Of a stretch of DNA of 64,000 nt, positions 21,282 through 46,541 are shown piece by piece (within the stretch, counting starts at the first letter, position 1; every line of letters begins with the position of its first letter). The notes under the pieces were generated by a model, which was not told the origin of the DNA, searched no databases, and saw only the letters and a list, made by a program, of their open reading frames with translations. Both the position numbers and the translations under genes were made by a program. Origin of the DNA: an uncultured Verrucomicrobiae bacterium (GTDB lineage Bacteria > Verrucomicrobiota > Verrucomicrobiia > Limisphaerales > Palsa-1400); NCBI GenBank assembly GCA_963702845.1, contig OY969763.1:4352001-4416000 (forward strand), given 5' to 3'.

Positions 21282-21814
21282 TTGAGGCCAGCAGGCGCGT
21301 ATCCAAACATTTTTCCCGTGAGGCCACCCCAGCCCTGCTTCCCGGAGAGGGTACACGCGGAAAAAACGCGGTCTGAGGCATTCCATTTTCGCGAGCGCTT
21401 TGGAATGCGGCCCATCTCCTATTTCTCGGCGGAAAGTGAATCGGCCGTGCCGCCTGATTTGCGAACGCAATGCTGACGCAAACCGCATTACAGCCTGCTT
21501 GTCTGTACAACGGGGGAGCTGCCGACGTGTAGCCAGCCGTAATTCACTATTTACTTCCGTGACACGTTTTTGCTGTCACGGCATCAAAGGCAATGGTGCC
21601 CTCGTAAACAAAGGGGTGTCACGCTGTCACGGTTCGAGAGCCCCGTCACGTGATAAGACTCTCACTAGACGACTACGCCACGGTAACACGCGCGGAGCTC
21701 AGGCCAGACCGGATCATTTTTTCAAAATTCTTTGAGGCCAGCAGACGCGTATACGCACATTTTCCGGCGCCCCCCCAACCCCGCTTACCAGGGGGAGGAG
21801 GTGCAACGCGAAAA
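21282..21814. repeat. Two imperfect ~85-bp direct repeats (21282-21366 and 21732-21814)
   Basis: TTGAGGCCAGCAGgCGCGTATcCaaACATTTT versus TTGAGGCCAGCAGaCGCGTATaCgcACATTTT, with similar C-rich/G-rich tails ending CGCG(G)AAAA. Confidence 0.7.
21557..21650. repeat. Cluster of TGTCACG heptamers, direct and inverted
   Basis: CCGTGACA 21557-64, TGTCACGG 21574-81, TGTCACG 21617-23 and 21625-31, CGTCACG 21644-50. Confidence 0.7.
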
Positions 21815-43225: not shown

Positions 43226-43630
43226 TCAAGCGGACACGCGCAAATATTGGACGAGTTCCTGAAACGAAGCTGATTTAACGAAATAGGTCGTGGCGCCAAG
43301 GTTGTAGGCGCGTTTCACATCGTTGGGCATATCTGAGGAGCTGAGGATGATAATCGGCAGCGTTTGCAACTCTGGATTGCCGCGCGCCCACTCCAAAACG
43401 TCGAACCCTGTTTTGCGCGGCATCTTCAGATCAAGGATCAAGACATCAGCCATCGGGAATTGATTGCGGTCGTGATATTTTCCTTTTCCTTGAAGCCATT
43501 CGATGGCGGCCTCACCGTCGTCGACCACATACAACTCGTGCGGCAAGGTCGCGCGGTTCAACGCCATTTTGAAGATGACAACGTCGTTGGGGTCGTCTTC
43601 TGCGTATAATATTTTTTTGCCACGGCTCAT
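43226..43630 (-). CDS. Single-domain response regulator
   Basis: AEDD, LDLKMP, LSSS, YFVK. Confidence 0.9.
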   Translation of the reverse strand: MSRGKKILYAEDDPNDVVIFKMALNRATLPHELYVVDDGEAAIEWLQGKGKYHDRNQFPMADVLILDLKMPRKTGFDVLEWARGNPELQTLPIIILSSSDMPNDVKRAYNLGATTYFVKSASFQELVQYLRVSA

Positions 43631-43770
43631 GTTAAGAATGGACGGTGGAAATGATAGCAATCAGTGACGGCGTGTGAAGACCGATTTTTCCCGCAGTCAA
43701 ATATAGGTGAACGCACGAACCGAGGATGACAATGGCGAGCGGCGATGGTATGAATTGAGCCAGTGACTTC

Positions 43771-44184
43771 ATGACAGCGAATGTATTTCGATATTCAAGC
43801 CGGGTAACGTATGCGCAGTGCACCGTGGGCAATCACATTTATTATGCGCGTTATCTCGATATTCTGGAGGCGGCGCGTGGAGAATTTGCGCGGGAGCTTG
43901 GGATGCCGCTGGGGATGTTGCAAGAGCAGGATACGATTTTTCCGGTGATCGGCGTGGAGATTTCTTACAAGTCGGCCGCGCGCTACGATGAAGTGCTGAC
44001 GACGGAGGTCTGGGTGATGGAGTGTGGTGGTGTGCGGGTGAATTTCGGAGCGAGGATTTTGAAGGAGGATGGGACGGTGGTTGTCGAGGCAGTGACAAAA
44101 CACGTTTGCACGACGCGGGATGAGAAACCGAAGAGGTTGCCGAAGGAGATTTTGGAGCGGCTCGAAACGCGAAAGCAGGTTTAA
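43771..44184 (+). CDS. Acyl-CoA thioesterase (4HBT/YbgC family)
   Basis: HIYYARYLDILEAAR, YKSAARYDE hot-dog fold pattern. Confidence 0.85.
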   Translation: MTANVFRYSSRVTYAQCTVGNHIYYARYLDILEAARGEFARELGMPLGMLQEQDTIFPVIGVEISYKSAARYDEVLTTEVWVMECGGVRVNFGARILKEDGTVVVEAVTKHVCTTRDEKPKRLPKEILERLETRKQV

Positions 44185-44185
44185 C

Positions 44186-44199
44186 GATATGCCGCCCCT
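44186..44199. repeat. Left half of an interrupted REP-like palindrome (target left flank + CT core)
   Basis: GATATGCCGCCCCT joins ACGGGG at 45397 to give GCCCC-TAC-GGGGT, paralleling the intact unit GATGTCGCGCC-TAC-GGCGC downstream. Confidence 0.8.
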
Positions 44200-44249
44200 T
44201 GTATGTCTCCTTTTGCCATTTCTTGTAGCTTTAATCAGTGAATAGGAAA

Positions 44250-44440
44250 CTGGCACTACGTTCCGGCCTGCAGGCCGGAATGTAGCGGCGCAGGCGTGAT
44301 CGTTCGCCCCTTGGTCTCCCGATTGGGAAGCCCGTCCCGTAGCAGGATCCGCCTGTGCTTTTGCTCCGAACTCGAACCGTTGTTTGAGCGGCAATCCTTG
44401 AACGCTGCCTGCTCGTATATGCAAGAATGAGTCAGAACAT
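44250..44440 (+). ncRNA. Bridge RNA of the IS110 element (ends approximate)
   Basis: 5' hairpin 44256-44285; target-binding loop 44288-44358; donor-binding loop ~44365-44436; four guide segments match target and donor. Confidence 0.85.
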
Positions 44441-44447
44441 TGCCATT

Positions 44448-45386
44448 ATGAACCATATCCCTGCCGTCGTCTATTGTGGCCTGGACGTTTCCAAAGCCTC
44501 TCTCCAACTGGACTTCAACCACCGGATTCACGAGGATCCAAACACCGCGCCCGGCCACAAAACATTAGTTAAGCGGCTGGCTTCAGCGCCTGGCATTCAT
44601 GTTATCTGTGAAGCCACGGGTGGCTACGAACGCGCCATCGTCGCTGCACTGCAAGAGGCAAACATTCCAGTCTCTGTCCTCAATCCTGCACGCGTCCGCC
44701 ACTTCGCACGGGCACAAGGCAGGTTGGCCAAAACGGATCCCATTGATACCACTGTTCTGACCGCTTACGGAACAGCCTTCAAACCCGCCTCCACCCCTGC
44801 GGCCAGCGCCTCTCAAAAACGATTGGCAGAATTGAGCGCCCGTCGTGCTCAACTCATCGATTTGATCGTCATCGAGAAGAATCGAGCTCCGATGCATTTG
44901 CTTCCCGAAGTTGGAAAATTGGCCCGACAACTACTGCGTCAATTGGAGGCTCAAATCAAACACATCGATAAACTGCTGGCGCATCTTCTCAAAGAAGACG
45001 GCGTTCTAGCGGACCGTGCTCAACGTTTGGATGCTATCGCGGGAGTCGGCCTCCATACTGCGGTTATGGTGCTGGCTGAAATGCCAGAACTAGGCACCCT
45101 CAACCGCCGCCAGGCAGCGGCATTGGCTGGGCTGGCTCCAATCAATCGTGATAGCGGTACCTGGAATGGTCCCCGTTCGATTGGCGGCGGTCGCGCCAGT
45201 ACCCGCAGAACTCTTTACATGGCCGCATTAACTGCCAGTCAATATAACAGACACCTAAAGCTCTTTTATCAACGGCTCAAAGACGCCGGCAAACCATCGA
45301 AAGTGGCCCTAACGGCTGTCATGAGAAAGTTGATCATCCTGATGAACCAAATCTTAAAAAACCCAAACTTCATCCTTGCCAGTTAA
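44448..45386 (+). CDS. IS110-family recombinase/transposase
   Basis: DEDD residues in GLDVSK, CEATGGYE, KTDPID; IAGVG HhH; GLAP...DSG serine motif; ATG 44448 preferred because 44427 lies inside the RNA fold. Confidence 0.96.
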   Translation: MNHIPAVVYCGLDVSKASLQLDFNHRIHEDPNTAPGHKTLVKRLASAPGIHVICEATGGYERAIVAALQEANIPVSVLNPARVRHFARAQGRLAKTDPIDTTVLTAYGTAFKPASTPAASASQKRLAELSARRAQLIDLIVIEKNRAPMHLLPEVGKLARQLLRQLEAQIKHIDKLLAHLLKEDGVLADRAQRLDAIAGVGLHTAVMVLAEMPELGTLNRRQAAALAGLAPINRDSGTWNGPRSIGGGRASTRRTLYMAALTASQYNRHLKLFYQRLKDAGKPSKVALTAVMRKLIILMNQILKNPNFILAS

Positions 45387-45396
45387 CACCGTTGCT

Positions 45397-45438
45397 ACGG
45401 GGTCTGCGATGCTACAAAGATGTCGCGCCTACGGCGCT
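45397..45438. repeat. Right half of the interrupted REP-like unit plus a second intact unit
   Basis: ACGGGGT...GCTACAAAGATGTCGCGCCTACGGCGCT; GTAG on the minus strand; lies between convergent genes. Confidence 0.75.
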
Positions 45439-45440
45439 GT

Positions 45441-46394
45441 CTAACCGAGAGCGGCGAATTGTTCGCGGCCTTCCATCAGATAGTCCAAATAATAGGACAG
45501 GCGCATTTTCATGTCGCCGCGTGGCACGATGGCGTCGATGACGCCGTGTTCCAAAAGAAATTCCGCGGTTTGGAAACCGGGCGGCAGTTCCGCCTGAGTG
45601 GTGTCTTTGATGACACGCGGACCGGCGAAGCCGATCATCGCGCCGGGTTCGGCGATGATTAAATCACCAACGCTGGCATAACTTGCCATAACGCCGGCAT
45701 AGGTTGGATCGGTCAACACACTGATGTAGGGCAACCGGGCCTTCGCGTGATATGCGAGTGCGCCGCAGGTTTTCGCCATTTGCATCAGACTGAACATGCC
45801 TTCATACATGCGTGCGCCGCCGCTGGTGGAAAAAATAATTACGGGCAAACCTTTATCGGTGGCCGCTTCTATCATGCGCGTCAATTTTTCGCCGACGACT
45901 GAGCCCATCGAACCGCCGAGAAATCCAAAATCCATCACGCCAAGGCCGATACGGTGTTTGCCGATGCGACCAATGCCAGTGCAGACGGCGTCCTTGAGGC
46001 TGGTGCTCTTTTTGTAGGCCTCAAGCTTAGCAGTGTAGGGCGCGACGCCGGTGAACTTGAGCATGTCCACGGCTTCCATTTCGGCGTCCATTTCTTCGAA
46101 TGAACATGTTTCGACGAGGGCGTGGATGCGTTCGCGCGCGGCGATTGTGAAATGGTAATTGCACTTGGGACAGACCTTAAGGTGCTCGTCGAGCTCCTTG
46201 TCGTAAATCATGCTGGCGCACTTTTTGCACTTCGTCCACAGGCCTTCGGGAATGTCCCGCTTTTTGGCCTTGGAAGTGGTCAGCTTCGGTTTTTTGACGA
46301 ACTGAGTCGCAGCGGCATCTGTATGCGGCGTGAGTGCTGGGTCGACCGTCTCGAGTCCGAGGGTCTTCTTGTTAGTAAACGAAGATGTGGCCAT
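45441..46394 (-). CDS. accD: Acetyl-CoA carboxylase carboxyltransferase beta subunit
   Basis: GLWTKCKKC...VCPKC zinc finger, GGSMGSVVGEK, SGGARMYEG, FAGPRVI. Confidence 0.97.
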   Translation of the reverse strand: MATSSFTNKKTLGLETVDPALTPHTDAAATQFVKKPKLTTSKAKKRDIPEGLWTKCKKCASMIYDKELDEHLKVCPKCNYHFTIAARERIHALVETCSFEEMDAEMEAVDMLKFTGVAPYTAKLEAYKKSTSLKDAVCTGIGRIGKHRIGLGVMDFGFLGGSMGSVVGEKLTRMIEAATDKGLPVIIFSTSGGARMYEGMFSLMQMAKTCGALAYHAKARLPYISVLTDPTYAGVMASYASVGDLIIAEPGAMIGFAGPRVIKDTTQAELPPGFQTAEFLLEHGVIDAIVPRGDMKMRLSYYLDYLMEGREQFAALG

Positions 46395-46541
46395 GTATGA
46401 TTTTAGACCTGCTGCGACTGCTACTGCAAAGTTAGGCGTTGGTAGCATAATGCATTACGGCGCAAACTCCACCTCTGCGTTTTAAACTTTTTGCAGAAGG
46501 CGTCAATAGCGGAAATTTGACGGCAGTTAAGCGCCACACGT

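Follow-up and report, generated by a model that had tools for sequence, protein, structure and literature searches.

The DNA between positions 44200 and 45396 (+ strand) of the window, the whole stretch of 64,000 nucleotides that was analysed, is best read as an insertion sequence of the IS110 group, intact and present in one copy, whose non-coding left end encodes a bridge RNA, with a probability of roughly 0.9. It appears to be an ordinary new member of a known family of RNA-guided recombinases, in agreement with the first-pass annotation of this DNA, which had considered the mechanism class as known and the member as possibly new. The element comprises 1197 bp if a single CT core, the right copy at 45395-45396, is included, and has its insertion point between two convergent genes, a thioesterase-family gene on the left (43771-44184, + strand) and accD on the right (45441-46448, - strand). 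Its left end measures 227 nt to the first ATG of the recombinase gene and 248 nt to the second, while only 10 nt (45387-45396) separate the stop codon from the right junction. A long non-coding left end, a very short right end, and the lack of long terminal inverted repeats are the features by which the IS110 group is recognized. Searches by DNA, by protein, and with an RNA model found one copy of the element in the 6.03-Mb genome.

The CT core is present at both junctions (44198-44199 and 45395-45396) and is common to all right ends read among relatives but one, which has CC instead (L036). Homologs also keep both termini of the element (left, TGTAT; right, ACCGTTGCT), and of 29 right ends that were read, 27 have the right one. 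In addition, metagenome contigs that are 95-99% alike stop at 44199 and 45398 (runs X1-X4 against window positions 43900-45700): a 603-nt contig begins exactly at 44199 and a 188-nt contig finishes at 45398. The contigs that carry pieces of the element at this identity come from soil and freshwater metagenomes. Such contig ends weakly support the boundaries and hint at copies in other contexts. With regard to an empty site, the element is absent between the two genes in two genomes of the same genus, where the intergenic DNA is not alignable and yields no exact empty site, and exact 22-nt scans of the metagenome contigs gave 0 matches for the left flank and 0 for the right flank. Since no empty site was recovered, the boundaries rest on the conserved termini and the contig ends.

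The recombinase gene occupies 44448-45386 on the + strand and encodes 312 amino acids (aa) from the ATG at 44448, or 319 aa from an in-frame ATG at 44427. Its product is matched by the Pfam models DEDD_Tnp_IS110 (2.2e-19) and Transposase_20 (4e-16), the pair PF01548 and PF02371, and by the NCBIfam model NF033542, "IS110 family RNA-guided transposase", with 189.8 bits against a cut-off of 140. The best match among solved structures is the ISCro4 transposase (PDB 9t56, E 1.5e-34, query 16-312), and the IS621 transposase (PDB 8wt6) is matched with an E value of 2.1e-34 (query 15-312 on chain 8-314). Residues D20, E62, D104, D107, and S243-G244 (319-aa numbering) are all present and align with identical residues of ISCro4; judged from their positions, they would be equivalent to D11, E60, D102, D105, S241, and G242, which are described as the catalytic residues of IS621 (PMC11208158). 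The assignment of the protein as an IS110 DEDD/Ser recombinase is supported by these matches. As to the translation start, the first ATG (44427) is absent in several homologs and sits in the closing helix of the donor loop, while the second is conserved in position in the relatives read and is followed by an N terminus that can be aligned with IS621 residue for residue, so that the 312-aa form is the likelier one. This is the length given in the first-pass annotation, but the adjective "compact" that came with it does not hold, since the IS621 chain in the PDB has 328 residues and the present protein is not unusually short.

Elements of the IS1111 group belong to the same protein family and likewise recognize target and donor by means of an RNA, but carry their RNA, the seekRNA, in a long right end and possess long subterminal inverted repeats. 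Membership of the present element in that group, with a seekRNA downstream of the recombinase gene, shares with the IS110-group reading only the protein family and has a negligible probability: the right end has 10 nt, and it is the 227-nt left end that holds the structured, co-varying RNA. Left-end RNAs are assigned by Durrant 2024 to the IS110 group and right-end RNAs to IS1111 (PMC11208160). The IS110-group reading is retained here.

The predicted bridge RNA consists of several stem-loops, all on the + strand. The 5' stem-loop (SL1, 44256-44285) has 13 pairs, one of which is G-T, and the loop TGCA. It is followed by the stem-loop that contains the target-binding loop (44288-44358), with a closing stem formed by 44288-44301 and 44346-44358 and an inner hairpin, TCCC-GATT-GGGA, at 44317-44328. 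The stem-loop with the donor-binding loop (44370-44432) is closed by the helix ACTC (44370-44373)/GAGT (44429-44432), which becomes GATC/GATC in a few sequences (4 distinct rows of the alignment), and has an inner stem in which GAGCGGCA (44386-44393) pairs with TGCCTGCTC (44406-44414). Every hairpin, stem, and guide that the first-pass annotation had described was found again, base for base. RNAfold, applied to 44199-44450, gave -94.6 kcal/mol (z = -4.3), with none of 200 shuffles as stable, and recovered the 5' hairpin and the target-loop stem. The span of 44250-44440 that had been assigned to the RNA does contain the bridge RNA features just listed, but is probably too short at the 5' side, where an additional hairpin (SL0) is located at 44214-44255. 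The RNA thus probably extends from about 44214 to at least 44432 and comprises SL0, SL1, and the target-binding and donor-binding stem-loops. A scan of Rfam 15 over 43500-46000 with E values up to 10 gave no match in the left end; it returned only three weak, chance-level matches, one of which is a partial Acido-Lenti-1 at 45420-45437.

A terminator-like signal was also flagged in the 3' strand of the target-loop stem (44342-44366), which is followed by CTTTTG; it is the sole such site in a scan of 44100-45500. The U-run after this stem is found in one subgroup of relatives (GCTTTTGCG), and the others are without it.

The same architecture is present in relatives of the element. With one genome scanned per species, 79 loci were found to have a homologous recombinase (47-63% identity), most of them in records labelled Verrucomicrobiota, and their upstream regions align with the same stems, the first loop being variable and the second nearly invariant; the invariant columns of the alignment lie mainly in the donor loop. 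RNAalifold on these left ends predicted 34 pairs, 27 of them with compensatory changes. A covariance model (R1) was then built from 29 homologous left ends. Eight of 37 aligned rows were omitted from it, namely, the window itself, five rows that were deleted or poorly aligned (L039, L042, L073, L078, and L089), and two near-duplicates (L044 and L075). R1, which contains nothing of the window, matches window positions 44248-44435 over its full length with 152.2 bits (E 2.6e-42). This is the one match of R1 in the genome, and its score falls within the range of the full-length matches in relatives (72-180 bits). In 78 of the 79 related loci the R1 match lies directly upstream of the recombinase gene, and the 79th has no upstream DNA. 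Across 69 distinct aligned rows, 96.2% of the cells pair, as compared with 71.2% after shuffling and 35-43% with slid partners, although the alignment was fitted to the R1 structure and these counts therefore favour it. Compensatory changes occur in 36 of 44 base pairs, including 14 of 14 in helix 1 (SL1) and 12 of 14 in helix 2 (the target-loop stem), and the frequent G-U pairs are consistent with the + strand only.

Several minor observations concern the same RNA. In a 97% identical metagenome variant, the 5' stem-loop carries the changes 44276 C>T and 44281 T>C, both of which keep the pairing. Two relatives have a damaged RNA, one lacking the right target guide and part of the target-loop stem (L039, 227-397) and the other matching R1 with its donor-loop half only (L073, 1374-1500); they are probably decaying copies. 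A weak second R1 match on the - strand of the window (21709-21808; 12.2 bits, E 0.031) is probably noise; the genome has no further IS110 gene.

The four guides of the window RNA can be compared with the DNA that they would recognize. The left target guide (LTG, TTCGCCCCT, 44303-44311) is identical in positions 3-9, that is, 7 of 9, to the left target half plus core at 44191-44199 (GCCGCCC + CT, GCCGCCCCT), which is host DNA 7 nt past the thioesterase stop codon; position 2 could form U:G with the bottom strand, and position 1 is a true mismatch. For the right target guide (RTG, CCCGTAG, 44336-44342), all seven positions are the reverse complement of core plus right flank, CTACGGG (45395-45401), of which ACGGG (45397-45401) is the right target half in host DNA. 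On the donor side, the left donor guide (LDG, ACCGTTGTT, 44376-44384) agrees in 8 of 9 positions with the right terminus of the element (45388-45396), the left donor (LD) ACCGTTG plus the core CT, and its lone difference allows U:G. The right donor guide (RDG, ATGCAAG, 44419-44425) pairs with the core plus the right donor (RD, TGTAT, 44200-44204) at the left terminus: against CTTGTAT (44198-44204) there are six Watson-Crick pairs of seven, the seventh being G:T. All of these guides and sites are read on the + strand, and the relation of the donor guides to the element's own ends is also seen in the relatives listed. A variant contig (run X2) differs from the window at 11 left-end positions, none of them in the guides; since about 1.5 would be expected there by chance, this is not significant.

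A chance control was made with 100,000 mononucleotide shuffles of the 227-nt left end at the observed match thresholds. Single guides were matched in 41,423 (LTG), 1669 (RTG), 3412 (LDG), and 11,116 (RDG) shuffles, all four together in 4, and all four in the observed order in none. The LTG match, attained in 41% of shuffles, is therefore not remarkable alone, but the set of four guides is, and the pairing of the four guides with the element's own target and donor, as claimed in the first-pass annotation, is borne out. These figures bear on a different reading of the left end, namely, that its structure is a mere leader of the transposase mRNA with a role in translation or stability, the matches to flanks and ends being due to chance or a by-product of terminal repeats. 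The frequency of the LTG match would suit such a leader, and the 3' strand of the donor-loop closing helix does overlap the first in-frame ATG and is situated 16 nt before the second, so that folding could affect translation. Against it stand the four ordered matches, which none of the 100,000 shuffles reproduced, the architecture itself, which is reported as experimentally established for IS621 (PMC11208160, PMC11208158), and the behaviour of the variable loop in relatives.

Because the termini are conserved, the insertion site of each relative can be read independently of its target guides. In a hand-checked set of 37 aligned elements, the left flank was readable in 24 and the right flank in 29. 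Over its seven non-core positions, the LTG agrees with its own flank at a mean of 5.00 positions and with the flanks of others at 2.64 (n = 24); for the five non-core positions of the RTG, the corresponding means are 4.17 and 1.39 (n = 29). The observed sums were reached by 0 of 20,000 flank shuffles, and the same was found when one element per distinct guide was retained (19 and 22 elements). Automated ends for all model matches, a set that retains some mis-called ends (e.g., L027, L026, L033, and L020), gave 51 and 48 distinct events with 35 and 29 distinct guides, and again 0 of 20,000 shuffles. Target guides in homologs thus track their own flanks, as the annotation had predicted for guides and insertion sites of a genuine bridge RNA. 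A pure leader would have no reason to do so, and this covariation over 24-51 independent insertions makes the leader reading highly improbable. By position, the LTG signal in the clade is carried by positions 4-7, is weaker at position 3, and is almost nil at positions 1-2, so that the two mismatches in the window fall where the clade is indifferent. The guide set of the window, being that of a single-copy element, is read against one insertion.

The published description of the IS110 group provides a close parallel. In it, the RNA of the left end has a 5' stem-loop and then two more stem-loops, each with an internal loop that is variable in the first and conserved in the second; in each loop, the 5' side is paired to 8-9 nt of the bottom strand and the 3' side to 4-7 nt of the top strand, and the core is included in all four pairings (PMC11208160). 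All of these points of layout, as given by Durrant 2024, hold in the window element. The claim that the element has the bispecific bridge RNA layout of IS621 is thus sustained, and is strengthened by structural as well as guide covariation in relatives. With IS621 of Escherichia coli, the element shares a DEDD RuvC-like domain, a Tnp domain with Ser-Gly, a long left end, a short right end, and a CT core; in the RNA, it shares a 9-nt LTG on the 5' side, an RTG on the 3' side with a maximum of 7 nt, and a putative handshake base following the RTG. From SL1 through the donor closing helix (44256-44432) there are 177 nt, which equals the length reported for the IS621 RNA. This likeness of the RNAs is one of layout, and there are differences as well. 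The two proteins are only distantly related (the PDB match, at an E value of about 1e-34, is remote); the window has the extra hairpin at 44214-44255, whereas the Durrant consensus of 103 left ends names one 5' stem-loop; the donor-loop handshake of the window does not fit its natural target; and only LTG positions 3-9 track the target in its clade. The likeness to ISCro4 (PDB 9t56) concerns the protein level only.

By analogy with IS621, the DEDD/Ser recombinase, probably in its 312-aa form, would bind the left-end RNA. The LDG and RDG of the donor loop would engage the joined ends of the excised circle, ACCGTTG-CT-TGTAT, and strand exchange would then take place beside the CT core. The outcome would be an element placed, as observed here, in a hairpin-like CCCC-TAC-GGGG site between convergent genes. 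The first-pass annotation had further called the element "naturally retargeted", which describes nothing special, since a guide set of its own is present in every IS110 element.

The target site, CCCC-TAC-GGGG, is small and hairpin-like. A second hairpin, GCGCC-TAC-GGCGC, is found just to the right of the insertion within CTACAAAGATGTCGCGCCTACGGCGCTG (window 45412-45444). In one search, five sites matched it exactly over 15 nt and three over 13 nt, and about a dozen further places in the genome carry short exact copies of this repeat (13-15 nt). The 45412-45444 region also has matches of 26-42 nt in many genomes of the same family, and the Acido-Lenti-1 match on the repeat is partial and sub-threshold (14.5 bits; gathering score, 37). 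The repeat has the look of a small REP-like family that is related to the element's target. With regard to the target, the element resembles two IS110-family elements of Pseudomonas putida, ISPpu9 and ISPpu10, which are reported to insert into repetitive extragenic palindromes (PMC12288879, 10.64898/2026.03.19.712850), in that the target is small, palindromic, and intergenic; it differs from them in that one insertion only is represented and the neighbouring repeat family is small. Landing harmlessly in small intergenic hairpins, a usual habit of the family, would be the biological aspect of this insertion. A genome search found no other perfect 12-nt target and ten sites with one mismatch. 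The lack of a second perfect target fits the single copy, yet at this genome size fewer than one occurrence of a random 12-mer would be expected.

How the RNA might be expressed is suggested by the two ends of the element taken together. A candidate -35 hexamer, TTGCCA (45376-45381, + strand), lies at the right end and a candidate -10 hexamer, TATGTC (44202-44207, + strand), at the left end, the latter weak, agreeing with TATAAT at 3 of 6 positions; joining of the ends places the two hexamers 17 nt apart. We infer from these hexamers a putative sigma-70-like promoter that would be complete only when the right end is joined to the left. A -35 with at least 4 of 6 matches is present at the junction in 13 of 30 related elements, compared with 2 of 29 host flanks in the same register. 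RNA initiated at such a junction promoter would start at about 44214, at the foot of SL0. A sigma-70 consensus scan of 44100-45500 in the integrated copy gave no promoter on the + strand. A promoter that is rebuilt on excision is a published idea for IS110 elements (Durrant 2024, PMC11208160), and weak expression from integrated copies is described as the normal state for IS621 (PMC13626964); the candidate junction promoter fits both.

Another feature with a possible bearing on efficiency is the handshake guides, in which bases 3' of the RTG and RDG pair with positions 6-7 of the other DNA (Hiraizumi 2024, PMC11208158); for IS621, this pairing is reported to raise efficiency (PMC11208158). In the window, the dinucleotide CA in the target loop (44343-44344, + strand) is complementary to donor positions 6-7 (TG). 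The corresponding AA in the donor loop (44426-44427, + strand) does not pair with target positions 6-7 (CC). Of the 52 guide sets of the clade, all 52 have donor position 7 paired with the base that directly follows the RTG. The base that directly follows the RDG is paired with target position 7 in 29 of them, a number that 3 of 5000 shuffles attained.

The element could be a real IS110 element with a bridge RNA gene that has nevertheless become a silent relic and no longer moves, either because the RNA is not made or because guides and handshake are suboptimal. Such a loss of mobility is rather unlikely. It would fit the single copy in 6.03 Mb, the lack of a + strand promoter for the integrated copy in the consensus scan, the weak -10 at the junction, the unpaired donor-loop handshake, and a genome that offers no other perfect 12-nt target but ten one-mismatch sites. 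On the other hand, the reading frame is open with all five catalytic residues present, all helices and the four guides are intact, the 152 bits of the RNA are within the 72-180 bits of full-length matches in relatives, and weak integrated expression is, as reported, normal for IS621 (PMC13626964). The contigs of 95-99% identity that stop at the ends of the element, as assemblers do at repeats with several contexts, point weakly in the same direction. An intact insertion sequence remains the preferred description, and "intact", as used in the first-pass annotation, is justified for the features of the sequence and for nothing beyond them. It is at this level that the production of the RNA, its ends, the split promoter, and the continuing activity of the element are to be taken as predictions, the last of them being suggested only by its intactness.

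The extra hairpin SL0 (44214-44255, + strand) lies between the left terminus and the 5' stem-loop. RNAalifold gave no consensus for this region, as the SL0 sequences of relatives cannot be aligned; each relative was therefore folded singly, and a hairpin was predicted at the SL0 position in 32 of 32 distinct left ends, 26 of them with z below -2. A tentative reading, more probably wrong than right, is that the bridge RNA of this clade is a longer form of about 219 nt with four stem-loops, in which SL0 is a functional module and the donor helix switches the transcript between guide RNA and transposase mRNA. SL0 may then serve, for example, in recombinase loading, in RNA stability, or in shielding from read-through. 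SL0 and the overlap of the donor helix with the translation start are the only features of this element that might repay experiment.

With regard to the wider meaning, the known mechanism is unchanged, and the NCBI family model already calls the protein an RNA-guided transposase. What is added is a well-documented natural bridge RNA with about 50 relatives, whose guides are readable straight from the genome. Judged by the labels of the closest records, the host lineage is mostly Verrucomicrobiota from soil and freshwater, far from E. coli, and such distant orthologues are candidate recombinases that could be used in engineering beside IS621 without cross-talk.

Some of the relatives occur in several copies. 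Three copies of one related element are present at different sites of one chromosome (OY760937.1; L016, L017, and L038). Two of their left flanks fit the LTG well (CCTCCTTCT), and the third, TTCCTTCCT, has a weaker fit with 4 of 7 non-core positions, and may represent an off-target insertion. Another related element, in which all copies have the same guides, occurs at least 16 times in one metagenome-assembled genome (CAWFPN01; L055-L071 and L080) and constitutes a natural test of the guide rule: the right flanks of its copies nearly all begin with ACCAAC or ACCAAG, in keeping with an RTG whose reverse complement is CTACCA.
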